Positions 10,255-41,100 of a stretch of 47,242 nucleotides of DNA are shown in pieces (positions within the stretch are counted from its first letter, which is position 1; the number at the start of each line of letters is the position of its first letter). The notes beneath the pieces were generated by a model. That model ran no database searches. It was not told the origin of the DNA and saw only the letters and a program-made list of their open reading frames with translations. A program made the position numbers and the translations under genes. Source of the stretch: an uncultured Lentisphaerales bacterium (GTDB lineage Bacteria > Verrucomicrobiota > Lentisphaeria > JABSQK01 > UBA12247); assembly GCA_943788985.1 (NCBI GenBank), contig CALSSJ010000033.1:1-47242 (forward strand), in the 5' to 3' direction.

Positions 10255-11003
10255 AACCCTGGCGGGCACTGACGCGGCAGTTGCTGGACACGCACTGCCA
10301 TGTCTTTGACTATCAGGATCCGGAAGCCGTGTTGGCTGCGGTGTGTGCGGCTGACATGCGTGTGCACGTCATGTCCCAGTCGACTGCGGAGTTCGCAACC
10401 AATGCCGAGCACTGCGATGGTGTACGTGTGCGCCCCGCGCTCGGGCTGTTTCCCACTCTGGTCACGCCTGACACTGTGGAGACCCTAGTTGCGGAGTTTG
10501 CAGCGGCGCTTCCCAGGACGCGGTTGGTAGGCGAGGTTGGCCTGGACTTCGTGACCGACGACCCGGCGTTGCGGAGTTCGCAAATCTTGGCATTTCGCGA
10601 GGTGTTAGCGCTGTGCGATGGTGCTGGGGGCAAGGTGCTGAGCGTGCATTCCCGCCGATCCGCGGCTGAAGCTATCGAGGTGGTGCAGGCTGCTACCAGT
10701 CCGGTGATTCTTCATTGGTTCAGTGGAACTGTAGAGCAGGTGCTGCGGGCTGGCACTTGGTTCTCGGTAAACGCGGCGATGCTGCGGTCTCGAAAGGGGC
10801 GGGAGCGAGTCGCAGCGATGCCACGGGAGCGCGTGTTGCTGGAGACGGATGGTCCGTATGTAACCGTCGGGGGGCGTCCCGGCCAGCCGTTGGACTTGCG
10901 GCATGTGGCGGAAGGCCTGGCCCGGTTGTGGGAAGTGTCGCTGGCGGACGCTGTTGAGCGGCTGGCGGAGAACGGGCGCGAGTTGTTTAGTGCTCAGTCG
11001 TAG
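10251..11003 (+). CDS. TatD family nuclease, QatD-like subfamily
   Basis: DTHCH, ALGLFP, VGEVGLDF, LSVHSRRS, ILHWFSG, WFSVNAAMLRSRKG, ETDGPY; ATGA-coupled to tatD. Confidence 0.85.
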   Translation: MKPWRALTRQLLDTHCHVFDYQDPEAVLAAVCAADMRVHVMSQSTAEFATNAEHCDGVRVRPALGLFPTLVTPDTVETLVAEFAAALPRTRLVGEVGLDFVTDDPALRSSQILAFREVLALCDGAGGKVLSVHSRRSAAEAIEVVQAATSPVILHWFSGTVEQVLRAGTWFSVNAAMLRSRKGRERVAAMPRERVLLETDGPYVTVGGRPGQPLDLRHVAEGLARLWEVSLADAVERLAENGRELFSAQS

Positions 11004-17901: not shown

Positions 17902-18547
17902 AGCCATCCGCAGGTATTTTTCGATAGTAGAAATGATGGTAGCTCTGAGTGTGCTGGCAGTGATCATCTACTTATCTGGGCAGTTTGTGATTCGGGTCCA
18001 GCGCCTGTGGGAGACCCACCGAGTAAACAGCAATATCTACATGAATGCTCGGGTTCTGCTGGATGTGGTGACGCGGGATTTGCAGGCACTCGCTGTCGAA
18101 GACAAACCCGGTTCGTCGATTTCCTATGGAAACATCGGGATCGGGGACCTGACGTTTGTCGGCGTGACGGCAAGCGGTTTAGGCGTTCAGCCTGATGACA
18201 TCGCGGTGCTCAGCGAGTTTGGTTACGAGCTTGATTCGGACAGCCAAGTCATTCGCTACATGTCCACGAGCGGGGCGGGGCCGAGCGTCGACTGGAATTT
18301 TTATAACAACGCCCCATCCGTGTATGCGGCAACTTGGGCTGATAGTACGGTGCTGGCAGAAGGCGTGTCCGAATTTTCCCTGACGCTTTTCAATTCTTCA
18401 CTTGGCCTCTACACCACGAGCGATACGATAGTGCGACCGCTATGCATTCAGGTGCATGCGACGCTCTATAATTCATTGGCGGTCACGTATGCGATGGAAG
18501 AGAGGACCAGCCGAGAATATACCAAAACAATTTTCCTGCCGCAATGA
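17891..18547 (+). CDS. GspJ/PilW-like minor pseudopilin
   Basis: RRY|FSIVEMMVALSVLAVII, ARVLLDVVTRDLQ, LAEGVSEF, and C-terminal P..IQV...YTKTIFLP. Confidence 0.82.
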   Translation: MKTRAIRRYFSIVEMMVALSVLAVIIYLSGQFVIRVQRLWETHRVNSNIYMNARVLLDVVTRDLQALAVEDKPGSSISYGNIGIGDLTFVGVTASGLGVQPDDIAVLSEFGYELDSDSQVIRYMSTSGAGPSVDWNFYNNAPSVYAATWADSTVLAEGVSEFSLTLFNSSLGLYTTSDTIVRPLCIQVHATLYNSLAVTYAMEERTSREYTKTIFLPQ

Positions 18548-21929: not shown

Positions 21930-22005
21930 CAGCTTCTACGGGGCGGATCATGGCCTTCCAAGGGTGTGGTCGTTCCGCTATGGACCATGTAGGCGTATAA
22001 GCCTC

Positions 22006-25000
22006 GTGTACACGTTCTCGTTTTCATTGCGCCGGCCGAGCAGGCTGGCCTTCATGGTCTTCGCGCTGTTGGCCGCTCAGTGCGTGTGCGCTGAGCGCTA
22101 CTACGTTCGTCAGACAGCCCCTGGTGCGAACGATGGCAGCAACTGGTCGCACGCGTTCACCTCGCTGACGCTGGCTCTGGACGTCGCCAGTCCCAGTGAT
22201 GAAATCTGGATGGCAGAAGGGACCTACCGTCCGACCAGTGACGGGGATCGGGGTAAGAGTTTCTCGGTGCCGAATAGTACGCTGATTTTTGGCGGCTTTG
22301 CGGGGACCGAGGATTCACGTCATCAGCGTGACTGGCGCGCACATCCGACGATTCTGACCGGCGATATTGGCGTGCACAACGACAGGACCGATAACAGCTA
22401 TCACGTGGTGCGGACCCAGAATGATGCGACGTTAGACGGCCTGATCATTGAGGGCGGATACGCGGACGGTGCGGATTCTGACGGCTGGGGGGGGGGAGCC
22501 TTTCTGGAGGCAGACTCTGGCGCAACCATCATCAATTGCGTATTCCGCAACAATTACGGCGTACTGGGGGGCGGCTTGTACTCCCGGCAGGCCCCGCCCA
22601 CGGTGTTCCAGAGCATCTTTTACGCGAATGAGGCAGACTCAGGGGCGGCCATCTACGTGGAGGAGAACAATCCGATTCTGCGGTTCTGTAATTTTTACGG
22701 CAACCAGGCCGCGACTCAGGGGGGCGCTGTCACGGGCGGAGCGGGCACGAGACCTCAACTCGCGGGCTGTATCGTCTGGGGAAACACACCAGACTCGTTA
22801 GTCTCGGCTCTTTCCGACGTCCAGCACTCAATTATTGAAGGAGGCTGGTCGGGGACCAACGTCTTGGATGCAGATCCACTTTTTGTTGACCCGGCGGATG
22901 GAGATTTCACGTTGCAGCTCGATAGTCCGGCGATCGACGCCGGGGTCGATTCGAATTTGCTGCGAGACACACTGGACTACGACGGGGATGGGGATGTAGC
23001 TGAGCTGTTTTCGCTGGACTTCCACAAAGGGCCTCGCCGTGTGAATCTGACTGAGCGGGCGAACACAGGCACCGGGGTGCCCGTTGACATCGGTGCGGTC
23101 GAGTTCCCGGGGTATCATGGCTTTGGCGATCGCGTGTGGCTGGATATAAACCGAGATGGCCTGCAGAGTGTCGGCGAGCCCGGGTTAGAGGGCGTTCGGG
23201 TGAACATGTACGATGTCACCGGGCTGGAGCTTCTGGATGTCACAGATACTGACGAGGATGGGCACTACCAGTTTGGCCAAAATCTGAATTTAGGAACCCA
23301 TGTGATTGAGTTTGTCCTGGCAACAAACCGGTTCCTGACGGTCGCCAATGCCGGCGATGACAACTTGGATAGCGATCCGGATCCAGCAACCGGGCGGGCA
23401 TTCGCGCACCGGCTCGAGCACTTCGGGACGGCTAGCGTAGATGCCGGTGTGCTTAGTGGTGTGGTCTACGTCAATCAGGCTGCTGCAGCGGGTGGAGACG
23501 GGACCAGCTGGGAGAACGCCTTCACTACACTCGGTGCAGGGCTGGCAGTGGCTGAGTTTGGGGACGAAATCTGGATTGCGGGCGGCACATATACGCCGGG
23601 CAGTGCGCCCAGCGACACGTTTGTCATACCAGAGCGCGTCATCTTGCTGGGTGGCTTTGCGGGGACAGAGAACACCCGGTTCGACCGGGTGCCCAGCGCC
23701 CAAGCAACGATTCTCAGCGGTAATCTTGGCGGCGCCTCTGCCACCCATCTGCTGGTGGCAAGCGGTGAAGCCTCATTCGACGCGTTGATTTTGGACCGCG
23801 CCTCGGCCCTGGGGGGCGGTGATAACGCGCTTGGGGCCGCAGTTTTTGCCCAGGATGCGGCGCTTACATTTACGGATTGCGTATTCAGCAACCACATTGC
23901 CACTTCAGGCGCAGCCGTGCACAGCACGGACAGTACGCTGACGTTTTTTCAGTGCTATTTCTACGGAAACGGTGCTGTGACTGGCGGCGTCGTCTATCTA
24001 GATGGTGGCTCGGCAACCTTTCTCCAGAGCACGATCACCGGAAACACGTCCGGTGACCAGAGCGCAGCGCTCGCGGCGGTCAGTGGTGGCGCCTTCACCC
24101 TGACCGGAACCGTTCTGCACGGCAATGGCACCGCACTGCAGGCAGCAAATGCCACGGTAAGCTACAGCCTGATCGAGGGCGGTTGGCCAGGTGCCGGGAA
24201 TGTAGATGAACCATACCAGTTCGTAGATCTTGCGGCTCAAAACTTCCGCCCTCTGCCGACCAGTCTGGCGGTTGACTCTGGCGATGCCTCCGCTTTGTTT
24301 TTGGATTTTTACGACCGCGACGGTGACTTCGATTTTGAAGAGCCATGGCCGTTAGACTTGGATGGCAACCCGCGGAGAATTGATCTGCAGGCAGTTCTGG
24401 ATGTGGGCCTGGGCGGGAACCCAGCGATCGACATTGGCGCGTTTGAAGTGCCGGGATTTACGGGCATCGGCGGCCGGATCTGGAGCGATGTAGACGGGGA
24501 TGGCTTTCAGGATCTTGACGAGCCATCCGCTAGCGGCGTGCGGATCAATCTGTTTCAGGATGGGGCAGTGCCCATTGCCACCACTGTGACAGGCTCGGAT
24601 GGGCGCTACGTATTTGAAGGACTCGTGGCGAGTCTTTATGAGGTAGAGCTTCAGCTGCCATCTAATCGTCAGTTGACCGTCATTGACTCGGATCTGGACG
24701 ACCGGTTCGATAGCAATTTTCACGCGGCAACCGGCCGTGTGTCACTGCAACTTCGGGAGAAGCAAGCGAGCCTGAATGTGGATGGTGGTTTGACACCGGG
24801 TGTGTTGTTTGCTGTGGTGGGCGGGAGCGGGCAGGGCACCTCATGGGCCGATGCCGCCGATCTTGCGACAGCGCTTGAACTGGCCGTCGCACAGGACGAA
24901 ATTTGGGTGGCCGCGGGGGAGCACGTGGTGCCGGGGGCACGTGACGAAGGATTTGTGGTTCCAGCAGACGTGAGCCTGTACGGCGGTTTCGCTGGCGACG

Positions 25001-28000
25001 AGTCTGAGCGCCGTAAACGCAATTGGGGTGAACATGCGACCGTGCTGACAGGGGAGCGCGAGGTCGGCGGCCCAGTCGATAATTCGTACCGCATTGTCAC
25101 ACTGGCAGACCGGACTGTTCTAGATGGCTTCCTGATCGAAGATGCGAATAATGGGGATGCGCCCGATGATATGCACGCGGCGATTGTCGTAGCGCAGGCG
25201 GAGAATGTGCGCCTTGCAAATTTGGTTGTCAGACACAACAATGGCGTGACGCCAGCGTTGCGGATTCATGACGCATCTCCTTCCATTTTCCAGTGCGCAT
25301 TTGTCGACAACGCCGGGACGCAGGTGGGGGCGATCGCAATCTCTGGTTCCTCGAGCCCTGAATTCGTGAGCTGTCTACTGGCGAACAATGCGGCGATTGT
25401 GACCGGCGGATTCGTCGCGGCCGGTGACTCGACGCCAGTCTTTCACAATTCGATCATCTGGGGCAATACACCGACGAACCTAAGCGGGCCCACTGCAGAG
25501 ATTCACAACTCTATTGTGGAGGGTGGCTGGAGCGGTGCTGGCTCTTCAATTCTGAGCGACGACCCGCAATTTGCGGACGCTGGTGCCGAGGACTATCAGT
25601 CGGTTTTGGCAAGCCCTGGCATTGATGTCGGAGACATCTCCGTGATCCCGCTAGACGTGGACGATTTAGATGAGGACGGCGATAGCACAGAACCCTACCC
25701 GCTCGACCTGCAGGGGGGGACACGCGTTGTGAACCTGGTCTTTCGCGGGTTGGAGTCGGCTGCAGTGGACATCGGGCCCTACGAGTATGCGGGAGGGGTG
25801 ATTGGGGATTACGTCTGGCTGGATCTCAACGCGAACGGGCAACAGGACCCTGAGGAACCACCAGCGCCTGGAGTTGCCGTATCCATCGTAGACTCGGTGG
25901 GGCAGGAATTGGGCTCAACAGTGACCGATGCACAGGGCGCGTATCTATTTTCAGGCCTGCTGGCTGGCACCTATGGACTGACTTTTACGGCCCCACCGCT
26001 GCGCCGATTCACCGTCCGCAATGTCGGCGATGACAGCAGCGACAGTGATGTGGGAGAAGATGGTACGGTCACCGTGTCACTGGCTGCTGAGCAAAGCCAA
26101 CTGACGATCGACGCTGCTTTGTTGCCCCGGCGCATCCACGTCAAGCCAGACGGCGTGGGGCCGGGTGGCGCGACCTGGGACTTTGCCGTGGATCTTCACA
26201 CCGCACTCAGCCAGGCCGCCAGTGGCGACGAGATCTGGGCTGCTTTCCGGGACCTATCCCACCAGTTCTGGAAGCGATAGGGCGGCGCATTTCAGCGTCC
26301 CAGCAGAGGTCTCGCTAATCGGCGGGTTCGTCGGGACCGAACTCTCGCCGCAGCACCACACCACACCACCTCTGGCCCCTTCTGTCCTGACGGCAGAGCT
26401 GGGAGCGGCAGTCGCTGAAGACAATAGCTATCACGTCCTACGAATGGCGGGCGGATCCAGCGTCGAATGGCTTACCATCGAGGGCGGCTACGCGAATGGA
26501 AGCGGCGATGACCGTGCCGGCGGCGGAATCATCCTGGAAGGCCAGTGCGAGGTGCGCAATTGCGAAATCCGCAACAACTTCGCGGCGACGCACGGTGGGG
26601 GCTTACATGGCGTCGAGACGACACTGACCCTGGATTCAGTGCTGGTGGAAGGCAATGGGGTCGGGAGCACCGGTGGCGGGATCTATCTGCAGGAGGGAAC
26701 CGTGATTCTCACCGATGCGATTCTGCGCGAAAATACCGCAGGAGTCGGCGGGGGGGGCATCTCAATGTCTGGCACGGACCTGACTATTCAGGCGAGTACT
26801 TTCACGCAGAACAGCACGCCGCTGTTTGGGGGGGGCATCTGGGCCACCGATGGAATTCTTGCGCTCACTGAAACAGACTTCAGCGGCAACTCAGCCGGTC
26901 TTAGTGGCGGTGCGCTTGATGTGCGGAGTTCGCAACTGAGCATGAGCAGTTGCGATCTGCGCAGCAACGGCAGCGGATTGCGGGGCGTGAGCTCCGAGAT
27001 TGTGCTCCGATCCTGTGTCGTGGAAGATCATACCGGGCCCGGGATTTCTGCGCAGAATGGCTCTCTGGCGGGAGCGTTGCTGACCGTGACTGGAAACAGC
27101 GGTGGCGGGCTGCGGCTAGACACGGTGGACACCACGCTTGTGAATTGTACGATTGCCCAGAACCAAGCTGGAACTGGTGCGGGAGTCTTCTTGCGAGGGC
27201 AGGGGACCAGCACTCTCACTAACTGTGCGATTGTCGCCAATACTGCCTCAGAGCGAGGCGGCGGGCTGCTCGGTGAGGACGGCCCCGCGCTGACCATGTC
27301 GTTCTGTACCGTGGCTGGGAACGAGGCACCGATCGGCGCGGGGGTGGACACATCAGCCCTTCAAACCCCTCAGTTTACTGCCTGCATTCTGGCGGGAAAT
27401 GTGGGACAGGACTTGGTGGGCCCCGGCGCGACGCTGGTGAATTGCCTGACCCTGCAGAATTGGGAGGGAGCCGGAAGCGCGAATGTCGTCGGTGATCCGC
27501 TGTTTGAAGCACCGCAGACTCTTGAGTTTCGGCTTCAGTTTGAGAGTCCCGGCGTGGATGCGGCGGACAGCGCCTTGCTCCCGAGTGATATCTTTGATCT
27601 TGACGGAGACGAGAACGTGGCGGAATCCATCCCGTGGGATCTCGCGGGGGACGACCGGCGCCAGGACTCCCCGGGCGTGGACACTGGAGTTGGAAGCATA
27701 CCGCGCCCCGATATCGGCGCTTTCGAATCTGGACCGGGTGGCGCGATTGGCGATTTTGTCTGGTTTGACACCAACCGGGATGGTCGTCAGGACGACACTG
27801 AAAAAGGACTGGAAGACGTCACTGTGACCTTGCTTTCTGAAGGCGGCGGTGAGATTGCGAGCGTGCAGTCTGGCGCTAACGGAAGTTACTCGTTTAGCAC
27901 TCTGGCTGGCAATTACATACTCACGGTTACGCCCCCTGCGTTTTTTACGGTTTCGCCCACGTCCAGCGGAAGTTCAGCGGAGAATAACGACCTTGAGGCA

Positions 28001-28507
28001 AGTGGGAGGACTGCGTTGTTTTCGCTGGCTCCCGGTCAGACGCGCACGGACATCGATCTGGGGCTGTCACCGGTCAGCAACGCGGAGGCGTTCGATTTCG
28101 AGTTACATCATGGCTGGAATCTCGTGGCATCGCCGTTGCGCCCGGTTAATGATCCACTGCCGGGGCTCATTAGTCTCGGCGCTTGGGCGTGGGACGGGCT
28201 CGACTGGGCCGCTGTGCAGAGGCTAACTGAACGACAAGGGGTATTTATCTTCAATCCGATTGGACCGCAAGCCGCGACTACGCTCGGGGCCCCCATCTTC
28301 GTTGGTACTGCGTTGCCGACTGGCTGGAACTTGTTCGGGCCGGGTAGCTCGCCGCCATACACCGACGTACCGCTGTCGGAGGTCGTGCTAAATTCCGCGG
28401 CAATCTCCAGCCCAATCTGGTGTTGGACTGGAACCTCATATGAACCTGTGATTGGGCCCCTGCGTCCCGGGCGCGGGTATTGGGCCTATGTCGGAGAACC
28501 AGAATGA
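22006..28507 (+). CDS. giant secreted protein (~2,160 aa): 4 x [parallel beta-helix/Pmp-like + DIGA(F/Y)E motif + SdrD B-like domain] + C-terminal GWNL domain; one frameshift near 26245
   Basis: Signal peptide (..RLAFMVFALLAAQCVCA), GGGA/GGAV and FxxN repeats, four GDxVWxDxNxDG SdrD-B starts. Removing one T at ~26245 restores EIWAASGTY and fuses ORFs 21964-26280 and 26165-28507. The start codon is uncertain (22006 or 22054). Confidence 0.85.
22096..28080 (+). repeat. four tandem intragenic protein modules starting at ~22096, ~23461, ~24802 and ~26131
   Basis: Each begins with G.(S/T)W..A..L..AL..A..GDEIW.A.G, contains GGF.G.E, ends its beta-helix with S.IEGGW.G/ENWEG-type, S..(I/V)D.G, DxDGD and DIG..E motifs, then an SdrD-B domain. 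The period is ~1.33-1.37 kb; the fourth module is longer. Confidence 0.85.
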
Positions 28508-29318: not shown

Positions 29319-30212
29319 ATGTATATCGACCCACACATTCACTGCAGCGCCCGGACGACAGACGATTATCAGGCAATGGCACATGCGGGCATCGTCGCGG
29401 TAATCGAGCCTGCATTCTGGTTGGGACAGCCGCGCACGCAGATCGGCTCCTATATCGATTACTTCTCCAGCATTGTGGGGTGGGAGCGTTTTCGGGCGGC
29501 GCAATTCGGTATTTGCCACTACTGCACGATTGGGCTGAATGCCAAAGAAGCTAACAATGTGGCGCTGGCTGAAGAGGTGATGGACCTGCTGCCACTTTAT
29601 CTGTGCAAAGAGGGCGTGGTCGCCATGGGCGAGATCGGATACGATGACCAGACCGAAGCCGAGGATCGCTTCTTCCGGCAGCAGCTTGAACTCGCGAAGG
29701 AGTTGGACATGGTTGTGATGGTGCACACACCGCACCGTGATAAGAAGAATGGTGTACTGAAGACCATGGCTGTTTGCCAGGAGCACGGTCTGGACCCGTC
29801 ACGCGTGGTAATCGATCACAATAACGAGGAAACTGTTCAGGACGTACTCGACGCTGGTTTCTGGGCCGCGTTCACGATCTACCCCAAGACCAAGATGGGC
29901 AATGAAAGAATGGTCGAGGTTGTCCGCCGCTTTGGCACCGAACGCATTATCGTCGACTCGAGTGCCGACTGGGGCGTGTCCGATCCGCTTGCTGTGCCTA
30001 AAACTGCCAGAATGATGCTCGACCGTGGCATTTCCAAAGAAGCCGCCCGCAAAACCTGCTACACCAATGCGTTGCTCGCCTACGGGCAATCAGGGCAGAT
30101 GAGCGAGGCGCACTGGTTGGAGCCGGAGCCGATTGATCAGCGTACGCTGTTCAGCGGGAATTCCGTGCTGCGCGGGCAGGAGCCGAAGATCGATCCAGGC
30201 CTGATCGAATAG
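29319..30212 (+). CDS. eboB: TatD-family hydrolase, EboB type
   Basis: DPHIH..ARTTDDY, IEPAFWLGQPRT, GWERFRAAQFGI, HTPHRDK, DHNNEET, TIYPKTKM, DSSADWGVSDPLAVPKT; adjacent to eboA. Confidence 0.88.
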   Translation: MYIDPHIHCSARTTDDYQAMAHAGIVAVIEPAFWLGQPRTQIGSYIDYFSSIVGWERFRAAQFGICHYCTIGLNAKEANNVALAEEVMDLLPLYLCKEGVVAMGEIGYDDQTEAEDRFFRQQLELAKELDMVVMVHTPHRDKKNGVLKTMAVCQEHGLDPSRVVIDHNNEETVQDVLDAGFWAAFTIYPKTKMGNERMVEVVRRFGTERIIVDSSADWGVSDPLAVPKTARMMLDRGISKEAARKTCYTNALLAYGQSGQMSEAHWLEPEPIDQRTLFSGNSVLRGQEPKIDPGLIE

Positions 30213-30217
30213 CCTGA

Positions 30218-31582
30218 TCAGCCCCGGAGGTCTTCTGGACGAAATCCTTCTCGGCCCGGGATACGCAGCAGCGCATTTGCCTCCGGGTTGTTACTGATCT
30301 TGACGTTTTCGGCATCGTACTCGAAGCCTTTTCCGGTGCGAATCGCGAGGGTGCCCAGTACGATCATCTCCGTGAGTGGGCCAGAGTACTCGAAGTTCGC
30401 CCCCGGCGTGGGCCCCTCGCCTTTGCAGGCACGCAGCCACTCGGCGCGGTGTCCGCCCTTGATGCGCGGGTAGACCGCTGGGGGGCGTGAGTCCGGGTTC
30501 GTGCGGAAATTCTGCCACAGCTCTTCGGGGAAGAGTCGAGGGCTGTCGGGGCGCATGTCTGCATGATAGATCACTCCCTTACTGCCAATGATCATCAGGC
30601 CACCTTTGTCCGAGAGCTTTTCAGCACCCATCGCGGCTGGTGCCTTGGGCAGGCTAGGCCCTTCATGCCAGGTGACAGGAATGACCGTTTCGCTTTCCTT
30701 CTGGCGGCAATGGAAAGTGACCACTGATCCTGCGGGCGTGAAGATTGGATTTACATGGTCAACGGTGACCTCGACTTTATGCGGAACATTCAGATTCAGA
30801 GCCCAGAACGGGGAATCCAGAGTATGGCAGCCGATGTCGCCGAGCCCTCCCATGCCAAACTTCCACCAGCCGCGCCAATGCTTTGGGTGGTAGACGCCGG
30901 GCGCGTAGCCAGGCGGATCCTGAACCGGGCCAGTCCAGAGATCCCAGTCTAGCGTATCCGGTGCTAGTTGCGCAGGCGGATAGGCCAGCTGCTCTTTATC
31001 GAGGAAGCCGTACCCAGTCTTCGGTCGGTCGGTCCAGGCAGTTACTTCTGAGACGTCGCCGATGAGCCCGGCCTCGATCCATTCGCGAATCAGTCTAATT
31101 CCTTGGAGCGCATGTCCTTGGTTGCCCATTTGGGTCACTACGTTCTGTTCCTTCGCCTCTGCCATCATCAGGCGCACTTCTTCGACGGTGTGAGCCATGG
31201 GCTTTTGCACGTATAAATGTTTGCCCATCTGCAGCGCCATTATGGAGGCGGGAAAGTGGGTGTGATCTGGCGTCGAGACAGTGACTGCATCAATCTCGTC
31301 CTTGAGTTCACGCAGCATGACGCGGAAGTCAGAGTAGGTTTTCGCGCTGGGATAGGTCCTGCTCGGATTCTTGAGCGCGCGTGGATCGACATCACACAGC
31401 CCCACGACCGTTTCCCCTTGAAGACTCATGACATCTCTATTGCCCATACCACCCACGCCGATGCAGGCAAGCCGGAGCTTTTTCACCGTTGGCTTGGCCC
31501 TGAGAAACCGGGGCATCATGAAGGTTGTGGCGGCTGCAGCTGAGGAGCCGATAAACTTTTTTCTCGTTAGGTCGATGTTCAT
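30218..31582 (-). CDS. Gfo/Idh/MocA family oxidoreductase with Tat-like signal
   Basis: TRKKFIG leader, IGVGGMG, VSTPDHTH, YVQKP, TQMGNQGH, LDWDLWTGP, WRGWWKFGMGGLGDIGCH. Confidence 0.93.
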   Translation of the reverse strand: MNIDLTRKKFIGSSAAAATTFMMPRFLRAKPTVKKLRLACIGVGGMGNRDVMSLQGETVVGLCDVDPRALKNPSRTYPSAKTYSDFRVMLRELKDEIDAVTVSTPDHTHFPASIMALQMGKHLYVQKPMAHTVEEVRLMMAEAKEQNVVTQMGNQGHALQGIRLIREWIEAGLIGDVSEVTAWTDRPKTGYGFLDKEQLAYPPAQLAPDTLDWDLWTGPVQDPPGYAPGVYHPKHWRGWWKFGMGGLGDIGCHTLDSPFWALNLNVPHKVEVTVDHVNPIFTPAGSVVTFHCRQKESETVIPVTWHEGPSLPKAPAAMGAEKLSDKGGLMIIGSKGVIYHADMRPDSPRLFPEELWQNFRTNPDSRPPAVYPRIKGGHRAEWLRACKGEGPTPGANFEYSGPLTEMIVLGTLAIRTGKGFEYDAENVKISNNPEANALLRIPGREGFRPEDLRG

Positions 31583-31707
31583 AATCCCCTCAGGACTCTC
31601 GTTTGAATGCGCGGACGCCCCTGACGCCAGCAACAAGCTAGGCCTTTCCGCACTGCTCACACGCGATCGGGGCCCAAACACAGCAATTTGAATGTCCCGG
31701 CGTAGAC

Positions 31708-33183
31708 CTACTTCTTGGGCTCGGAGCGTTTGATTTGGGACATGATTGTTTCGGCCAATCTGGGGCCAATCCCCGGCACGCGTTTCGCTAGCTCGGCACT
31801 ATCGTGGCGGCGCAGGTTGCGGACCGAGCCAAAGGCGGTCAGGATCTGCTTCTTGCGCTTCTCGCCAATCCCCGAGATTTCATCCAGCAGCGAGTTCAGG
31901 ATTCGATTACGCCGCAAGCTCCGATGAAAGGTGATTGCGAAACGATGCGCTTCGTCTCGCATGGCCTGGACCAGGCGTAAGGCTGGATCGTGCCGCTCCA
32001 GGATGATGGGCTCGCTCGAGAAAATGGTGAAGATTTCTTCATTCCGCTTTGCGAGCCCGATGATCGGCAGGCCATCTAGCTCCAGTTTTACGAGTGCTTC
32101 GTAGGCCGCATGCAACTGGCCCAGCCCGCCGTCTATCACTACCAATTGAGGAAGCTCCTTCTCTTCCCCCAGCAGCCGTGAATACCGTCGGTCCACCATC
32201 TCGGTCATGGTCGCAAAATCATTGGCCCCCACCACTGTTTTCACGCGATAATGCCGGTAGTCGGGCTTTGCTGGTACGCCGTTCTTGAAGCAGACCATCG
32301 AGCTCACTGCGCTCGCTCCCTGCAGATTCGAGTTATCGAAGCACTCGATCGTAGTCGGCAGATCCGCGAGATCCAGCGCCTTCTGCAAGGCCACGACTGC
32401 GTCCATTCCGGCTGGCACCTCCAAGGTGCGCTGTGAAAACGTACGATTCCGGGCACCAAACACGGTCTGGATGTTGTCGATCATGTCCCGTAGTTGTGCC
32501 GCTTTCTCGAAGCGCATGGCCTCAGCCTGACTCCTCATGCGCTCTTCCAGAACCGTGGCAATGCCGCTGGTTTTTCCCTCCAAGACCTGCATCAGGGATT
32601 CAATCTGGAGGCGATACTCCTCCTCCGTGACTTTCTCGAGGCACGGTGCTTTGCAAAAGCGCACCACGTCATTCAGGCAATGCTTATGGTCGTCCACGCC
32701 GGGGCGTTCCGGCGAGCAGGAACGCAGTCCGAAGTGCTGTGTCAGAAAGTCTAGAACCTGGCGCAGAACGCCCGCATGCGGAAACGGACCGTAGTATTTA
32801 CAGCCATCGTCCTTGCGCAAGCGCGCCAGCGTAAGTCGCGGGAACGGTTTGTCCACGTCCAGCTTTACCAACAGGTAACGCTTATCATCACGCAGCACCA
32901 CGTTGTAGCGCGGCGCGTACTTCTTGATCAGCTGCGATTCCAGCAGCATCGCCTCGTTCTCCGTCCGCACCTCGTGCGTCTCAAACCAGGCAATCGAGTT
33001 AATCAACGAGCGTAGTTTGGGGTCGACCGTACGCTGACGAGAGGGCTGAAAGTAGGAGGACAGGCGCTTGCGCAATGATTTTGCCTTGCCCACGTAGATG
33101 ACCTGGCGCAGTTCATCGCGAAAGATGTAGACACCTGGTTGGGCCGTGATATCGCCCACTCGGTACTCACTGCGCTGCTTCAT
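31708..33183 (-). CDS. uvrC: excinuclease ABC subunit C (compact form)
   Basis: GIY-YIG PGVY...IYVGKAKSLRKRLSSYF, PRYN, UVR domain FEKAAQLRD, ECFDNS, IDGGLGQL, RDEAHRFA, HhH GIGEKR. Confidence 0.96.
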   Translation of the reverse strand: MKQRSEYRVGDITAQPGVYIFRDELRQVIYVGKAKSLRKRLSSYFQPSRQRTVDPKLRSLINSIAWFETHEVRTENEAMLLESQLIKKYAPRYNVVLRDDKRYLLVKLDVDKPFPRLTLARLRKDDGCKYYGPFPHAGVLRQVLDFLTQHFGLRSCSPERPGVDDHKHCLNDVVRFCKAPCLEKVTEEEYRLQIESLMQVLEGKTSGIATVLEERMRSQAEAMRFEKAAQLRDMIDNIQTVFGARNRTFSQRTLEVPAGMDAVVALQKALDLADLPTTIECFDNSNLQGASAVSSMVCFKNGVPAKPDYRHYRVKTVVGANDFATMTEMVDRRYSRLLGEEKELPQLVVIDGGLGQLHAAYEALVKLELDGLPIIGLAKRNEEIFTIFSSEPIILERHDPALRLVQAMRDEAHRFAITFHRSLRRNRILNSLLDEISGIGEKRKKQILTAFGSVRNLRRHDSAELAKRVPGIGPRLAETIMSQIKRSEPKK

Positions 33184-33692
33184 GACAGCATCAGCAGTGC
33201 ACCGGTGCCCACGGCGAGCCCGCCATAGAAGCAGCACCAGCTCCACGCACGTTGCCGGATTTGCGGAGTTCGCAAAACCGGAAAGGTCACCATCTGCCTG
33301 GTGTGACGATCCGGGTCGATCAGAAGCACCGAGCGGACGCCGAACAGCGCGCACTGCTCGCGCAACTGCCGGCGAGTGGTGGCGGGCAGGGCAGGGGACA
33401 TCTCCGGCCGAATCGCACGAATTTCCACCAGCGCCTCTTCACCGTCGTGGGCGACAATGAAATCTGCAAGGTCCGCAAATTCATGCCGGGCACCGTCAAG
33501 CGCCACGTATTCCCGTGCATAGCGCCGTCGCTCGTGAATCGCGGGCCCGTCGCTGAGGAGCGCCTGATGCACCTCCGGCTCGCCTGCCTTGGTCCGCGCT
33601 GCCGTGAGGTGGTAGATCCCTCGCAACAGTACAGGGCGCAGGAGCTGGTAGCTCAGGATGGCCAGCGCGCCGACGAATAGTCCGAGAGTCAT
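33180..33692 (-). CDS. membrane-anchored PD-(D/E)XK nuclease-fold protein, catalytically degenerate paralogue
   Basis: N- and C-terminal TM helices; GE...ADFIV...VEIR...TRRQLREQ; ATGA overlaps on both sides. Confidence 0.65.
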   Translation of the reverse strand: MTLGLFVGALAILSYQLLRPVLLRGIYHLTAARTKAGEPEVHQALLSDGPAIHERRRYAREYVALDGARHEFADLADFIVAHDGEEALVEIRAIRPEMSPALPATTRRQLREQCALFGVRSVLLIDPDRHTRQMVTFPVLRTPQIRQRAWSWCCFYGGLAVGTGALLMLS

Positions 33693-34225
33693 CGGACGAG
33701 CAGCCCGATGATTGCTGCAACCACCAGCCCGCCAAAAAAGCATGCCGCCGGGAGCAAGCGCCCGGACAACGCGACCTCCGCGGCTGGACCGGGGAAGTGA
33801 ATCGTGCTGATTGTGCCCTCTTCGGGATTCACCAGCAGGAGGTCATCTGCCTCAAAAACTGCCGCGTACTCACGCAGTTGACGGCGGGTGGCGGCGTGTG
33901 TGGGATTGGAGGCGCGCTCTCGAGTTTTCACCTCCACGACGGCGACGCGCCCGTCTCGCTCTACGAGCAGGTCGGCGATCACCTCGAAATCGGCTGGCTT
34001 GCCATCCACCTCCAGCGTGCCGGTGGCGCGCACCTGCCTGCCTGCGATCGCATAGCCTGATGCCTCCAAAACTGCTTCCGCGGTGACTTCACCATCCCGG
34101 GAAATTTGGAAGCGCTTGGCCAGCCGCTGGCTTCTCAGAGCGCGGGTGAAATGATGCCACAGCGCAGCACCACCCAGAAAGGAGAAGGCCATCAGCACGC
34201 CAACCGCGATGGCAGTTCCGCTCAT
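33689..34225 (-). CDS. membrane-anchored PD-(D/E)XK (YraN/RecB-like) nuclease-fold protein
   Basis: N- and C-terminal TM helices; GEVTAEAVL..SGY, ADLLV, VEVK, TRRQLREY (QxxxY). Confidence 0.75.
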   Translation of the reverse strand: MSGTAIAVGVLMAFSFLGGAALWHHFTRALRSQRLAKRFQISRDGEVTAEAVLEASGYAIAGRQVRATGTLEVDGKPADFEVIADLLVERDGRVAVVEVKTRERASNPTHAATRRQLREYAAVFEADDLLLVNPEEGTISTIHFPGPAAEVALSGRLLPAACFFGGLVVAAIIGLLVR

Positions 34226-34228
34226 CAA

Positions 34229-34633
34229 TCAGCTCCGCAGTGCAGCGGTAATCTCAGTCGGCAGCCGTGTGGGCCGCTGCGTTTCGATCTGCACGCAGGC
34301 ATGGCGCGTATAGCCGGCGGCAAGCAACAGGCCGTCTCTGCGAACTTCGCAGCACGCTTGCAGGCGGGCCCCTTTGGCTTCGCCGACCCAGCCGTGAATC
34401 TCGAGTAAGTCGTCATAGCGGGCAGGCTTTTGGTAGTCGCAATGGGCCTCGACCACCGGCAGGCCGCACCCTTGCGCCTCCATTTGGACATACGGGTGGC
34501 CCAAGCGGCGTAGCATCTCATTGCGGCAACGCTCGAAGTACACCAGATAGTTCGCGTAGTAGACCACGCCCATCTGATCCGTGTCTGCGTAGGGAACGCG
34601 ATATTCCAGAATCGTATGATCGCTGGCGGTCAT
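34229..34633 (-). CDS. acyl-CoA thioesterase (YbgC/4HBT family)
   Basis: RVPYADTDQMGVVYYANYLVYFE..R, PVVEAHCDY.KPARYDD. Confidence 0.93.
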   Translation of the reverse strand: MTASDHTILEYRVPYADTDQMGVVYYANYLVYFERCRNEMLRRLGHPYVQMEAQGCGLPVVEAHCDYQKPARYDDLLEIHGWVGEAKGARLQACCEVRRDGLLLAAGYTRHACVQIETQRPTRLPTEITAALRS

Positions 34634-36341
34634 TGCTCAGCCTTGCGATAGGTGCGAAGTACAACCCAGCTGCCGTGGGCAATGTTTAGGCCTTCCACCC
34701 TTCGCGACCTCATAGCCGGGAGCTTGAATGGTATCCAGATCCGCGCGCCGATCCTTCATCTCCAGCTCCTTGCCGAGATACTTGGCCTGGAACCAGCGAT
34801 CCGGCTTGAGCTCTGTCTCTAGCGTCACGATCAAGTCGTAGGAGCCGCTGTCCAGCAAGTCTTGGACATCCTCGGCGCTGCGCGCCTTCCCGTTCCAGAA
34901 TTTCTTGGAATAGAAGACGATGCTAGGCTCGCTAAACCCCCAGTAGGCACAGCGTGCATTCTCGGGCAACGTGGCAAAGGTGGGCTGCAGGGCGATCACC
35001 GGGTGCTGGACGCGGAGTCCCTTGCCCAGACAGTGCGCGCCTGCGGCCAACAATAGCAGCCCGCCCCAGAACCCGGCACCCAACCGGGACGCTTCTTGGC
35101 CCGCGCAGCGAACAGTAAGCCGGCGGCAATCAGCGCCAGCGCGGCACCGACATAGCGAACGCTGGGAAGCGGTGCGAACATCATGCCCAGGCCGATCACG
35201 CCCACCGTGGTGTACAAGGCGAAGACTGCAGTCTTGAGGCGGTCGCACCAGCGTGGGAACTTCAGTCCCGGGTGTTGGCAAAACTTGCCGAACAGTAAAA
35301 AAGAAAGCTGGCAGGCCTGGAAGCACATAATGTGGCAATTGGGTACGGTAGCAGAGAAAAATTAAGTACGGCGACATCCACCAGGCTACCAGGAAGGCAT
35401 GCTCCCGCGTCCAGTTGCGGCGCAGCCAGATTAGAAAATGCCCGATCCAGGCAGCCCACGGTGCCGCACTGAGGAAGAAGGTGACGAAATAGTAGCCGGG
35501 AATTGGAATGGCGCTTGTTGAACGCGCGCATTCCGCGGTCCACCACGTGCCTTCCCACGCCCACGTCCCAGAACGCGCCCTCGGTCAGAACCAAGGCTCG
35601 AATCCCCCATGGGGCGACCACCGCTAGCGCCACCAGTGCGCCCAAAATAAGATGCAGGCGTCGCCAGAGCGGCGCTTCTGCGAGGGCTTCATCCTGGTCC
35701 TTTCTGCGTGCCCGCCAAGAAAACACGCCATACAGAGCCAGCGCCAGCACCGGAACTAGGATCGCGATCGGTCCCTTGGCTAGAAAACCCAGGCCAAGCG
35801 CCAGATAGGTAATCAGGAAGTTCGCCCGGCGATCTTTTCCTTCGCCAAACAACAGCTGATGGATTCCGAACATTGCGATGGCCACCGCCAGGACCATGGG
35901 CATGTCTGCCACAGCCCCACGGCCGTGGACGAAGAATTGTGCCGAGAGAAGCATGGTAATCGCGCCCCACAGCGCGCCACGGTCGCCCACGAGCCGGCGT
36001 CCAAATACGAACACCGCAAGTGCCAGCAAAATAGTGGAAAGGATGCTGTGCACCCGCGCGCCAAGCTCATTCACGCCAAACGCACGATAGCCCAAGCTCA
36101 TTAACCAGTAGGTCAGAACGGGCTTGTCGAAGCGGTACTCGTTGTTGAAATACGGCACGATCCAATTGCGATTCACCATCATTTCCCGCGTGGCTTCCGA
36201 AAACTTCGGTTCGTCGCGGTCCAGCAGTGGCATGATCGCCGCGCCCGGCACCAACAGCAGCAGCCCGGCTAAGGCCAAGAGCAGGCAATAACTACGGACA
36301 TCCGAAATGGAGAATTTCTGTGCTTTCTTACGCCGCTTCAT
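34630..36341 (-). CDS. arnT: ArnT/GT83-family glycosyltransferase (several frameshifts, ~35500-34700)
   Basis: DRDEPKFSEATREM, W.VPYFN..YRFDKPVLTYW, GFLAKGP, TQLPHYVLP, GFSEPSIVFY. The final frame ends RKAEQ* overlapping the thioesterase ATG. Confidence 0.85.
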
Positions 36342-37803
36342 CGGGTAGCTCCTTGTTGCGCTTTCTGCGGTATATCCGGCGGTAGGCAATGGCGAACGGC
36401 AGGCCGACGGCCAAGCCTAGCGCGCTGGACGTCAACATATCCGATAGGTAATGCGCGCGAATCTCGAAGCAGCTCCAGGTCACCAAGATGCCGTTGGCCA
36501 GCGCCAGCCACCCTACCGACGGGGCCGCGATCACCATGCAGAAGCCATTGCCCATGGCGGTAGCTGTATGCGCGGAGGGAAAACTGTGATAGTCCGCGCT
36601 CAAACGAGGGCCGTGGAACTTGTCTGGCACAGTGGTGCCAGCCATCTCGGCTTTGAGCCAGGTGCGTGGTCGAGGGCGGCCGGAGCTCGAGCGCACGACG
36701 TTACACAGTAGCCCGCTCGCGCTTGCGGCCAGGAACGAAACCAGGGCCAGGCGCCGCAGTTTGGGCGAGTGAAAGAGCCAGCCGATCAGGAAGATCGTGC
36801 CGTTGATTACCATGGTATCCGTAAATGCTCCCCACTTCCGAACTCGTCCCCAGAAGTGATCATAGCCCGGATTGCGGAACTCCAGCCAGGCTCTATGAAA
36901 GCCGCGGTCTTGTGGAAACAGCCAGAGGTCCGCGGCAATTGTGGCAATCGCGAGCAGCAGAATCCAGCCCCAGTTGGCCCGTGCAATTCGTATTGCACGT
37001 CGCAGAAACACTCGCGAGTAGCGCCAAGTCCGCCGGGCGCCCCAGCGCACGTGCGTTTTTACGCTTGCAACAGTGCCACGCCAGAGAGCGCTCGCGCTAG
37101 TCTTGCCGTCACCGGTTGTCACGTCGACACCGCAGGCGGCAAGCAGGTGGGCTGGGCCGAATCGCCAGACCACGAAGAGGACCGCCCCAAATGAAACGAG
37201 TGCCATAAGGATACTTGAGCCCGCTGAATCACTGCGGATCGAACTGCCCAGCAAGGCCATGGGTACACCATGAGGCAAATAGCCCACGAACGTCCCGAGC
37301 AAGAACGAGCCCAGGCCAATGCCCAGTTTTGCCATTCCGACGGTCAGCAGCACGCCTGGAAGCGGCATCAGACGTGCCATAAAGACGAAGCCGACATTCC
37401 CAAATGCCGCAGCGCGCTCGCGCAAGATTCCCAACCCCTTGGGCGCTTCTTCATCGCTGTTGCGCGAGAGCAAGTAGATGACCGCAGATGCACCGCATGA
37501 GGCAAACTGGGCGAGCAGCAGTCCCTGCCAAAAGCCAAAGACCAGGCCAGCGATATTGTAGATGAGCAGGCGCGGGAAGCCAGCCACCAGCAGCGGCACT
37601 AGGATCAGGAATGAGGGCAGGACGCCGAACTCCTTGCACTTCGCAAGCGCACCGGTCAAGTGGAACTCGATAACCTGCCGGGCTTCCTCATAACGGCAGA
37701 ATAGCCCCAAGGAGATCCCAAGTACCACCAGCAGCACCAGAAAAAACAGCCGCCAATCATGAATTCCGTGGCGCGGCGCAGCAGCGCGCTTTGCGTGGGC
37801 CAT
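36328..37803 (-). CDS. VTT/DedA (SNARE-associated) domain + PAP2 phosphatase fusion
   Basis: N-half GFP....IAGLVFGFWQG, FMARLMP.P, FLLGTFVG.LP; C-half GRPRP, SFPSAHT, AHYLSD. Confidence 0.85.
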   Translation of the reverse strand: MAHAKRAAAPRHGIHDWRLFFLVLLVVLGISLGLFCRYEEARQVIEFHLTGALAKCKEFGVLPSFLILVPLLVAGFPRLLIYNIAGLVFGFWQGLLLAQFASCGASAVIYLLSRNSDEEAPKGLGILRERAAAFGNVGFVFMARLMPLPGVLLTVGMAKLGIGLGSFLLGTFVGYLPHGVPMALLGSSIRSDSAGSSILMALVSFGAVLFVVWRFGPAHLLAACGVDVTTGDGKTSASALWRGTVASVKTHVRWGARRTWRYSRVFLRRAIRIARANWGWILLLAIATIAADLWLFPQDRGFHRAWLEFRNPGYDHFWGRVRKWGAFTDTMVINGTIFLIGWLFHSPKLRRLALVSFLAASASGLLCNVVRSSSGRPRPRTWLKAEMAGTTVPDKFHGPRLSADYHSFPSAHTATAMGNGFCMVIAAPSVGWLALANGILVTWSCFEIRAHYLSDMLTSSALGLAVGLPFAIAYRRIYRRKRNKELPDEAA

Positions 37804-37843
37804 TCGGCAGCCTCAACAGTCGTTCTCAGTTACAAAGCGGCTG

Positions 37844-37871
37844 ACTATAAAGGCACGGCTCCGTCACGCAA
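37844..37871 (-). promoter_or_regulatory. putative sigma70 promoter (TTGCGT-16-TATAGT) of the DedA-PAP2...uvrC operon
   Basis: Hexamers ~40 nt upstream of ATG 37803, inside the divergent, AT-rich intergenic region. Confidence 0.4.
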
Positions 37872-38163
37872 GCATGGCGCGCGATCCGGACACAAGAGGC
37901 TCTAGGTTTGAACCAAGTAATGGGACGATGGCAAGGGCTTGCTAACACCTTTCCTTTTTTCTAAGAGGGGGGGCTTGCGTGAGCACTGCGCATTTTGAGA
38001 AATAGCGCTAGACTCAACTTGCGTAGCTATAAAGTTGATATATTGTTTAGATATTGTTATGATTGATCTGTAAAATCCGCAACAAAGTGGGTTGAACGAT
38101 TGTAGAGGTGCGCGATATTGCGTCAAAGCTGTGCCCTGAGAGTGAATGCGGACTGGTGAAGTA

Positions 38164-41100
38164 ATGATGAAGTTAGCATCAAAATTTTGTGCCTCATTTC
38201 TGTTGCTGTGTGTGACAGCGAGCGCCATTGATGAATTTGCAGTGGAAGCAAAACTGTCGAAACGTCTGATCGAGATCGGCATGTTCGATTACGCCACGTT
38301 TCATGTGGAGGGACTTCAGAAAACGGGTGCTGAGCCGGAAGCGGTCTCGATCCTCAACGCGCAACTGCTGGCTGGTCAAGGAAAACGCAGCGCCGCATAC
38401 GATGTTTTGAAGGGCGTGAAGTCGTCCAGCAAATACTACGTACCCGCGCTGCTGATGATTCCGGCCATGACCTCCGACCTTAAGGCGCGAATTACTGCGT
38501 ATCAGGCGTACTTCAAGGCCGTTCCTGAGCCTCCAGCAGGGGCAGAGAATTGCCGTGATTGGCAAGGCGTGGTCATGCGCTATGCAGACTCGCTGAAAAA
38601 GCAGAACAGGCCGGGCGAAGTCGAGAAGACGCTAAAGCTGCTGGAGAAGGGCTGCGGCCCGGGTGAAGGCGGTGCCGTGGACGAAAATATGGTGGCTATG
38701 ATCGGCCTGCGGTTCAAGCTGGAGGCGCTGGAAAAAGAGGCCAAGCCGGCTCCTGCCAAGGTTGACGCCGTGATTAAGGAACTGGAGAAAATGCGCTGGG
38801 GCATGGACTATTTCTCCTCGCTTGCCTACGTGGAGATTGCCCGGGCGATGATTCTGAAGGGGAAATTCCAAGAAGCCATCGAGCTGCTCGCGGAGAACAC
38901 TGAGTTTCTGATGAACATGCACACGGGGGTGGTGAAAGACACCGGTTCCAGCGCCCAGTCGCCGCTAGCGGGTGCTTTCTACTACATCGGCATCGGCTAT
39001 GAGAAAATTGGGGATAGCAAGAAAGAGGGAACTACTGAGCGCAAGAAGCTGCACGCGAAAGCCTACAAGAAGTTCCGCAAAGTAGCGACGGATTTCTCGG
39101 ATGCGTCTATCGCGGTAAAAGCCCTGATGGCCAAAGATCGCGTTGGCCAGAAGCTTGGCGGTGTGCGCGAGTCATCGCAGGGTGCCAGTGCGTTGAAGCA
39201 GCAGGGCATCCAGAAGGAATCGGCTGATGCCCAGTACCGCGACAAGAAGTACGACCGCGCGATTGAGCTATACTTAAAGGCGTTGAATGTCGCGCCCGGT
39301 TCTAAGCTGGCACCTGAGATCATGGCCCTGTGCGTTGCTTGCCTGAAGAAGCAAGACCGCATGCTCGAGGCGGTTGCCTTGACGATGTTCATGGCAGAGT
39401 TCTATCCGGATTCGCCCAAAACTGGCGACTCATTGTACAACCTGGCTGTGTCGATGTGGAAAACGGGTATTGACCTGAACAAGACGGGCAAGGTCGAGCC
39501 AGCAAAAGCAGCCAAGGCTGACGCGATTCGCATGTTTGCCGCCTTTGCCGAAGCCAACCCCACGCATCTGAAAGCAGCGTTTGCCGCCTATACTGTCGCC
39601 AGTGAGAAGTACGCGCAAGGCGATGAATGGAAAAAGAAGAAGGCTGCGGCCAAATCCGTAAAGGAAGGCAACGAAGCAATTCTGGCGATGCGCAAAGCAT
39701 TTCGCGAAGCAATTCCTGCCTTTGAATACGTGGTCGACAACTACGGCAGCTCAAAGTATGCCGCCAAGGCGCTGTATCGCCTGGCCTGGATCTATCGAAT
39801 CCTGACCAACGATGAAGCCACAGAAGAGAACGAAGATCAGCTCTGCGCCGACACATTCCTAAAGTTCTGCGCGCTCGCAACCGAGCCTACGGCTGACCGG
39901 TTGATCGCAAAGTACCAGGCAGCGGACCGTCTCTATGCTCTTGAAGACATGGTGGCTGGCGAGAAGCACTTCTCGGAGCTGGTGGGCTGGATTGATTCGG
40001 GTGCCTTTAAGGGCGTGGACAAGGTCGCCGAGTACCGCAAGAACGCGACAGCCATGAATGCTTGGTGCGTAGATGCTCAGGCTTTGGGCTTGCGTGGCAC
40101 CATGGATGCTGTCCGCGAAGAGATCGAAGCCCTTCCGCCCCAAGAGGGTGGTGAGCCTGTAGTTGTGCCCGCAGAGCTACAAGCAAAGCTGGTCAAGGCA
40201 GAAGGCGAATGGAAGGCTGGTTTGAAACGCGCCATTGATTCCTTTACCCAATTCCTAGGCCAATATGCCAAGGACGAGCAGCAGGCACCGTCAGTGATGG
40301 CCAAGCTTGGCGCCATCTATACTGCGGATCTGGATGATGCGGCGATGGGACAGACCTGGTTTGAGCGCTTATCCAAGACCTTCCCGAACTCCTCTGCTGC
40401 CAAACAGTCTGTCTTCACGCTCGGCCGCGTCTACGTTAAGAACGGGCAGTGGGCGAAGGCCAACGAAACCTATACCAAGGTCAAGGACCAATTCGCCGAA
40501 CACGGCTATGCAAACCTCTACTTTATTTCCCGGCAGCCCATGCAGCCAGCAGGCGAGGAGAAGCAGATCGGCCTGGATCCGTTGATCGCGATCGCTGCCA
40601 ACGAAGCCTTGCTGGCGATTGCGAAAGACAAGAAGCACGAGGACAACGCCGACGCAGTGAAACGCCGCGAGCTTGTGAGCCTGCGGGTTACCGATGGCTA
40701 CGTGGCAATGAAGCGGTTCGAAGATGCGCTCAGCACGTACGACCGTATGATTCGCGAAGAAGAGCAAAAGAAGAGGGCTAGCGGGAAATACAGCTCCTTC
40801 TACTTCAAGGTCATGATGGGCCAGGCCCAGGCATTTCGCGTGCAAGGGGAGACCCAGCAGGCCGTTGATGCCTTGAATACCGTCCTCAGCATGATCAATG
40901 CCACTTCCTTTCCCACGGTCTACTTCAAGGCGGTCTGTGACCTAGGAGATGCCATGGCTGATAGCAAGGACATCAAATTTGTCAAAAAGGCGGCCTACAT
41001 GTATCAGCAGACAGTCGAATTTGCCCCGCGTGACAACGAGGAGATTCTGCCCTATATTGAGCGAGGCTACTTCGGCGCAGCTTGGAACCTATCGCGTCTG

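Follow-up and report, generated by a model that had tools for sequence, protein, structure and literature searches.

A tandem pair of PD-(D/E)XK-fold paralogues with predicted membrane anchors beside uvrC in an uncultured Lentisphaerales bacterium: a canonical putative nuclease and its diverged duplicate

The locus and its two paralogues

The window analysed here is the whole 47,242-nucleotide (nt) contig CALSSJ010000033.1 (assembly GCA_943788985.1) of an uncultured Lentisphaerales bacterium. Two small genes that lie directly upstream of uvrC, here named nuc1 and nuc2, are the subject of this work. Four open reading frames (ORFs) are arranged head to tail on the minus strand in the order thioesterase, nuc1, nuc2 and uvrC (Table 1). 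The nuc1 ATG lies 3 nt past the stop codon of the thioesterase gene, which is likely to be the first of a transcription unit with nuc1. The stop of nuc1 and the start of nuc2 overlap in an ATGA at 33692-33689, the stop of nuc2 and the start of uvrC in another at 33183-33180, and from these overlaps the cotranscription of nuc1, nuc2 and uvrC is plausible. A preliminary description of the locus had taken this chain to imply stoichiometric expression. The overlaps are as described; two more ATGA junctions occur within the window, at 10251-10254 and 18544-18547, and such overlaps are a common form of operon packing in this window, with possible translational coupling. The junction type thus says little about stoichiometry, and we do not retain that part of the claim. 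A scan of positions 30000-38500 found 4 sigma-70 promoters, versus 2.7 in shuffled sequences, and 11 terminators, versus 8.0. Neither count is in excess, and the boundaries of the operon are thus deduced from gene spacing. An Rfam scan of the window returned 0 matches. By its TIGR00194 score (Table 1) and its Pfam domains (GIY-YIG, UVR, UvrC_RNaseH_dom and HHH_5), the uvrC product is a true UvrC. It is 100% identical to a protein labelled as from a Lentisphaeria metagenome-assembled genome (MAG), and a length of about 490 residues is usual among its relatives.

Table 1. Coordinates of the genes and loci described in the text. Positions are those of the window unless a locus number is given.
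Feature	Position	Strand	Remarks
nuc1	33689-34225	-	178 aa, ATG start
nuc2	33180-33692	-	170 aa
uvrC	31708-33183	-	491 aa; TIGR00194 435.9 bits (cut-off 285)
Thioesterase, YbgC/FadM-type acyl-CoA	34229-34633	-	Pfam 4HBT_2 5.6e-20; TIGR00051 98.3 bits (cut-off 68.7)
246-aa ORF	34637-35377	-	No Pfam match
PMT_2/ArnT-like glycosyltransferase ORF	35262-36389	-	375 aa
TatD-family gene	9475-10254	+	
TatD-family gene	10251-11003	+	
TatD-family gene	29319-30212	+	
Very large ORF	21964-26280	+	1438 aa
Very large ORF	26165-28507	+	780 aa
ORF with DUF1559 (SBP_bac_10)	1844-2575	+	Match at N-terminus
Family gene before nadK	L018:1317-1829		
Family gene before nadK	L030:1133-1651		
Family gene before nadK	L048:4968-5522		
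Family gene before nadK	L068:4992-5513		
Family gene, Microvenator MAG	L015:4854-5312		First copy
Second family match, Microvenator MAG	L015:8145-8378		N-terminal part missing
Site with HSDR_N_2 gene downstream of a family member, Chlamydiae MAG	L063:5522-5980		10-nt overlap

The nuc1 and nuc2 proteins are 34% identical over 129 aa (BLASTP, E 9e-19). They are paralogues, as had been described for two proteins of about 170-180 aa at this position. The nuc1 protein carries E46, D85, E98-V-K100 and Q116...Y120, whereas nuc2 presents E, D77, E90-I-R92 and Q...Q, i.e. an ExR and a QxxxQ in place of ExK and QxxxY. In Pfam, nuc1 passes the gathering threshold (GA) of UPF0102 (PF02021; 27.6 bits, GA 23.6) and of PDDEXK_1 (23.2 bits, GA 22); nuc2 has no Pfam match. 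AlphaFold2 models were obtained for nuc1 from a 23-row alignment, with a predicted local distance difference test score (pLDDT) of 92.6, and for nuc2 from an 80-row alignment (pLDDT 85.9). Both models begin with a long N-terminal helix and continue through three long strands, a helix and a pair of strands to a C-terminal helix, with an alpha-beta-beta-beta-alpha-beta core whose elements follow the order expected for PD-(D/E)XK proteins. We compared the models with the PDB using Foldseek. The best match of both was the Cas4 protein SSO0001 (4ic1; E 6.8e-6 for nuc1, 1.1e-5 for nuc2), and further matches included the nuclease domains of AddAB and AdnAB, a DinG-linked nuclease, XisH, Hjc, RecU and the Cas4-family ACE1. 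A profile of the family, compared with solved structures, recovered the UPF0102 protein RPA0323 (3fov, E 1.4e-4) and Cas4 (4ic1, E 0.008). The models thus place both proteins in the PD-(D/E)XK fold, in its YraN/RecB/Cas4-like form that includes a QxxxY helix, as the preliminary description had proposed.

Within this fold, nuc1 has the catalytic D...(D/E)xK motif and, from its intact E-D-ExK-QxxxY site, is predicted to be a metal-dependent nuclease. The nuc2 sequence lacks the motif and reads as a fold member with a degenerate site; the loss of motif residues suggests that it is inactive.

Hydropathy was computed on the Kyte-Doolittle scale with a 19-residue window (KD19), for which the usual threshold of a transmembrane (TM) segment is 1.6. 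For nuc1, the N-terminal maximum is 2.0 and the C-terminal maximum 2.39; the corresponding values for nuc2 are 1.78 and 1.44. The hydrophobic helices previously noted at both ends of each protein were thus recovered, with the C-terminal segment of nuc2 falling below the threshold. Internal segments nowhere exceed 0.74. In nuc1, an N-terminal TM segment at about residues 4-22 is followed by a basic juxtamembrane helix, the nuclease core and a C-terminal TM segment at about 159-177; nuc2 is shorter by about 11 residues in the basic linker. The same layout prevails in the family: among 156 proteins of at least 160 aa, KD19 reaches at least 1.6 in the N-terminal segment of 136, in the C-terminal segment of 121, and in both for 106. 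The 15 residues past the first TM segment have a median net charge of +6 across the family, and nuc1 and nuc2 both have a short N-terminal tail that carries no charge. The lack of a basic tail together with the strongly basic stretch past the first TM segment suggests, under the positive-inside rule, that the nuclease domain is cytoplasmic, with both termini outside. Of 121 members, 79 carry a GxxxG motif in the C-terminal TM segment, where shuffled sequences would give 29; this enrichment points to helix-helix packing, either within or between molecules.

Divergence and maintenance of nuc2

We compared the catalytic columns (nuc1 E46, D85, E98, K100, Q116 and Y120) across 176 sequences. These are the best-scoring members of the family, and degenerate forms could be under-represented among them. 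The signature EDEKQY was found in 166 sequences, EDDKQY in 6 and DDEKQY in 1, and one PAS-domain protein matched partially. The signature EDERQQ was found in two sequences only, nuc2 and its 99%-identical database copy P0024. The catalytic Lys and the QxxxY Tyr, whose loss from the second copy was correctly described at the outset, are thus retained by all but one of the 174 remaining sequences. A search with nuc2 recovered only P0024 and four weak canonical members, with no further orthologue. As far as the data reach, a nuc2-type protein is found only in this near-identical form, and the pairing does not extend to other genomes, an outcome that the preliminary description had itself named as counting against its proposal.

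The origin of nuc2 was examined with an IQ-TREE phylogeny of 50 rows, in which nuc2, P0024, nuc1 and P0002, the closest relative of nuc1, form a group with support of 98/99. The nearest row to nuc2 is nuc1. The bootstrap fell short of full convergence and the branch of nuc2 is long; a quick tree was concordant with this placement. The two proteins also have in common departures from the family consensus. The tree grouping and these shared departures fit a tandem duplication in the Lentisphaeria lineage of the window followed by a strong acceleration of nuc2, whose stem branch measures 3.72 changes per column versus 0.49 for nuc1, a ratio of about 7.6.

Such a branch raises the question of whether nuc2 is a functionless duplicate in decay, its frame open by chance or through translationally coupled neighbours, so that only nuc1 matters. 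The length of the stem, the loss of two residues that nearly all other members keep, the lack of a Pfam match and of any database relative other than the 99%-identical copy, the weaker TM hydropathy and the deletion of about 11 residues from the basic linker all speak for decay. On the other side, the 170-codon frame of nuc2 is intact although synonymous sites between the paralogues are saturated (the proportion of synonymous differences, pS, is 0.76, and that of nonsynonymous differences, pN, 0.52), and only 234 of 20000 nucleotide shuffles (1.2%) stay open. The coding periodicity of GC content is also retained, with values of 0.71, 0.48 and 0.73 at the three codon positions that are similar to those of neighbouring genes. 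Substitutions have spared conserved positions preferentially: of the 37 strongly conserved columns, nuc2 has the consensus residue in 22, versus 20 of 91 variable columns (Fisher p 7e-5), and the residues retained include the invariant TRRQ and acidic residues. A confident model with the fold of the family and exact ATGA junctions on both sides of the gene argue in the same direction. The pairwise dN/dS of nuc1 and nuc2 is uninformative because of the saturation of synonymous sites. The long branch and lost residues of the second copy are features also expected under relaxed selection, whereas its open frame, codon periodicity and conserved columns go against simple decay. We are fairly confident that nuc2 is being maintained as a protein whose active site is impaired or changed. 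The remaining doubt falls mainly on decay, which we regard as rather unlikely.

The wider family, its relatives and its gene neighbourhoods

A word-based search with nuc1 retrieved 23 relatives, whereas an exhaustive profile search retrieved 1692 representatives at E<=1e-3, of which 934 at E<=1e-30. When one genome of each GTDB species was scanned, 373 family loci were confirmed. Machine-made Atlas cluster names include, for example, 'putative PD-(D/E)XK endonuclease-like', and the family is labelled PD-(D/E)XK/UPF0102-like. Thus nuc1 is an ordinary, canonical member of a large uncharacterised family of small (about 175 aa) nucleases, an activity predicted for the family as a whole. The literature consulted yielded no functional study of, and no paper on, a membrane-anchored YraN/Cas4-like nuclease family, although the supplementary tables of PMC3424549, on domain architectures and TM elements, may mention such proteins. 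The statement that the locus is not a described system therefore holds for functional work, whereas the single-gene family is large and already carries automatic labels.

YraN/UPF0102 is the best relative at the sequence level. To our knowledge, YraN has no transmembrane helices, whereas nuc1 and nuc2 bear hydrophobic helices at both ends. The two kinds of protein are otherwise alike in being small and single-domain, and the family profile aligns to 3fov through GE...A..L...GY, the D strand, EVK and T-x-RQ. The 3fov chain has 134 residues, and its alignment lacks an extra beta-hairpin present in the nuc1 family. The NCBIfam equivalog cut-off for YraN is failed by nuc1 (best model NF009151, 24.3 bits versus 124). 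YraN is reported in a preprint (bioRxiv 10.1101/2024.02.06.579203) to be an endonuclease of single-stranded DNA (ssDNA) that natural transformation requires and that resolves transformation D-loops together with the ComM helicase; co-occurrence and interaction with ComM are also stated there. Among 29 large ORFs of the window, none has a ComM-type Pfam match.

Domains of the Cas4/RecB type (SSO0001, AddA/AddB, AdnA) are the best structural matches, and the motif order E...D...ExK...QxxxY is common to them and the family. The QxxxY motif is present in nuc1 (Q116...Y120) and absent from nuc2 (Q...Q). The family differs from Cas4 in having no four-Cys Fe-S cluster: residues 31-150 contain a median of 0 Cys, at least 4 Cys are found in 1 of 156 proteins, and the single Cys of nuc1, at position 162, lies inside the C-terminal TM segment. 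The TIGR00372 cas4 model scores 13 bits with nuc1 against a cut-off of 65. Neither nuc1 nor nuc2 has a fused helicase or a Cas-type domain in Pfam, and both are predicted to be membrane-anchored. The nuc1 family is best described as a separate membrane-tethered branch beside YraN and Cas4.

The same comparisons bear on whether the family consists of DNA nucleases at all. Its members could instead be membrane-bound RNA-processing enzymes, or non-enzymatic nucleic-acid-binding or membrane proteins that keep the fold. The PD-(D/E)XK fold is also found in RNA-processing proteins, according to PMC3424549, and no DNA-metabolism gene is a conserved neighbour across the loci described below. With nuc2 and P0024 set aside, 173 of 174 sequences conserve E-D-(E/D)xK-QxxxY, which indicates an enzyme, and the closest structures and sequence relatives (Cas4, AddAB, AdnAB, YraN) are DNA nucleases. 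We therefore consider a family without DNA nuclease activity very improbable.

Gene neighbourhoods were examined in the best 79 of the 373 loci. Most are from Myxococcota, and the others include Gemmatimonadota, Planctomycetota, Chlamydiae, Bacillota, Margulisiibacteriota and Bacteroidota-type MAGs; none is labelled Lentisphaerota. The flanks extend at least 1.5 kb downstream in 69 of the 79 and at least 1.5 kb upstream in 66. Using the UvrC and thioesterase of the window as tblastn queries, we found neither uvrC nor a ybgC-type thioesterase near the family gene in any of the 79 loci, and none has a diverged tandem second copy. A second family match occurs in one locus, in a Microvenator MAG (L015), where a near-identical copy that lacks its N-terminal part lies 3 kb downstream of the first. 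It was rejected as a diverged partner, being a near-identical truncated repeat or an assembly duplication. Antisense ORFs aside, an all-against-all comparison of flanking ORFs gave no neighbour cluster common to more than 13 of the 79 loci, and the largest of the other clusters include spurious high-GC frames. Pfam analysis of 64 neighbours from 20 diverse loci identified ordinary housekeeping genes.

A different arrangement was observed in four loci of Thermoanaerobacterales, other Bacillota and Margulisiibacteriota, where the family gene lies directly upstream of nadK and abuts or overlaps its start (Table 1). There, argR and recN follow nadK in L018, L030 and L068, the last from a Thermoanaerobacterium isolate, and L018, L048 and L068 have tlyA (FtsJ/S4) on the upstream side. 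In a Chlamydiae MAG (L063), a gene with an HSDR_N_2 domain, itself of PD-(D/E)XK type, directly follows the family member with a 10-nt overlap. Its product was rejected as a counterpart of nuc2, since it has no similarity to nuc1 or nuc2 by BLASTP or with the family hidden Markov model and the arrangement is found in one of the 79 loci.

Closer to the window, the best relative of nuc1 is P0002 (48% identity) and the best relative of its UvrC is P0176 (78% identity). Both are listed under one source, each on a contig of 24,729 bp, and they probably share that contig. The search with nuc2 returned no nuc2-like protein from the contig of P0002; a very divergent orthologue could fall past the E-value threshold.

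These neighbourhoods allow the more elaborate proposal to be weighed, namely an obligate heterodimer of nuc1 and nuc2, one subunit active and the other inactive, that would be tethered to the membrane and cooperate with UvrC in excision repair, DNA uptake or defence, with a stoichiometry set by co-translation. Pairs of an active and an inactive nuclease paralogue are known from XPF-ERCC1, Mus81-Eme1 and the catalytic and structural subunits of the tRNA-splicing endonuclease, and XPF-ERCC1 acts in nucleotide excision repair. As in those pairs, an intact nuclease-fold subunit stands beside a duplicated degenerate paralogue, and the uvrC neighbourhood echoes excision repair. The likeness is one of logic within a broad fold class, and the nuc1/nuc2 pair is confined to one lineage. 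The proposal draws further on the ATGA-joined tandem arrangement of both paralogues with uvrC, on the apparent selection to maintain nuc2, on the GxxxG enrichment, on the probable proximity of a nuc1-like protein and UvrC in the nearest relative and on the recN-containing gene string of the nadK-linked loci. It is opposed by the 79 loci of other genomes, none of which has uvrC nearby or a diverged tandem partner. The usual family member is thus the product of a lone gene that works without UvrC, and the idea of a conserved system is not borne out. Moreover, UvrC already possesses both incision nucleases (GIY-YIG and RNase H-like), and ATGA overlaps are frequent in the window. The chaining to uvrC looks like a compact local operon organisation, with no conserved functional coupling. 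For a role in defence, a tblastn search of plasmid and phage collections with nuc1 gave no match, and PADLOC returned weak partial matches for nuc1 (DruK 21.2 bits; Cas4 models E>=0.002) and none for nuc2. With housekeeping neighbours elsewhere, membership of an anti-phage defence system finds no support in these searches. Overall, we hold the UvrC-linked obligate heterodimer to be improbable.

The remainder of the window has a chromosomal, housekeeping character, with cysS, three TatD genes, a Gfo/Idh/MocA oxidoreductase, a PMT_2 glycosyltransferase and a PAP2/VTT membrane protein. Two of the three TatD-family genes are in tandem and joined by an ATGA, forming a second tandem paralogue pair in the window. 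The PMT_2/ArnT-like ORF overlaps the 246-aa ORF by 116 nt in another frame, which may point to a gene that is frameshifted or split, or to a fault in the assembly. The two adjacent very large ORFs have right-handed beta-helix and SdrD B-like repeats and probably encode surface or adhesin-like proteins. DUF1559, found in a further ORF, is typical of pilin-like proteins of the Planctomycetes-Verrucomicrobia-Chlamydiae (PVC) group, and its presence would be consistent with the Lentisphaeria label of the protein identical to UvrC.

Proposed roles of nuc1 and nuc2

The reading that we favour, with moderate confidence, is that nuc1 is a canonical membrane-tethered nuclease, that nuc2 is a lineage-specific duplicate that is non-catalytic or altered, and that the link to uvrC is local. 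In this scheme, the YraN/Cas4-like domain of nuc1 would face the cytoplasm, anchored in the inner membrane through a single TM helix on either side, and would act on membrane-located DNA (or RNA) in a metal-dependent manner. A tandem duplication of a nuc1-type gene in the Lentisphaeria lineage would have given rise to nuc2, which would then have evolved about 7-8 times faster, its catalytic Lys changing to Arg and its QxxxY Tyr to Gln. The nuc2 protein would still be expressed, folded and associated with the membrane. It would most likely be a non-catalytic or altered-specificity partner of nuc1, and could serve as an accessory or regulatory subunit. The pairing of the two proteins might occur via the nuclease core, the GxxxG-bearing C-terminal helices, or both.

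Several observations weigh against this reading. They include the features of nuc2 that speak for decay, among them its C-terminal hydropathy and its isolation in database searches. The Arg at the Lys position might allow nuc2 to keep some activity. Catalysis by nuc1, the topology and any contact between the two proteins are, like the activity and substrate of the family, predictions. With P0002 and P0176 probably on the same contig, the nuclease-uvrC neighbourhood may extend beyond this genome to a sister lineage, and the 79 loci that speak for a local link are mostly from Myxococcota. Finally, the nadK-argR-recN string is a second, independent placement beside a repair gene and leaves some room for a tie to DNA repair.

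This last point is taken up by a broader alternative, in which the family is a class of DNA nucleases, not recognised before, that are related to YraN, tethered to the inner membrane and active at its cytoplasmic face on DNA such as incoming or damaged ssDNA. Its tie to repair would be hinted at in unrelated phyla, by operon linkage to uvrC in Lentisphaeria and to nadK-argR-recN in Thermoanaerobacterales, other Bacillota and Margulisiibacteriota, and nuc1/nuc2 would be a heterodimer of recent origin, with an active nuclease and a pseudo-nuclease, that parallels XPF-ERCC1 at the bacterial membrane. We consider this alternative improbable.

Under the favoured reading of a canonical nuclease with a lineage-specific duplicate, the nuc1/nuc2 pair is a local evolutionary event of limited reach, and the family behind it is of greater interest. 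It comprises a small predicted PD-(D/E)XK nuclease clamped to the membrane at both ends and present in hundreds of species. Among characterised proteins, the nearest to it is YraN, reportedly a transformation D-loop endonuclease, and a membrane-tethered version of such an enzyme could bear on how DNA is handled at the membrane. The nuc1/nuc2 pair provides a natural comparison between an apparently active and a degenerate member, through which the function of the family may be approached.

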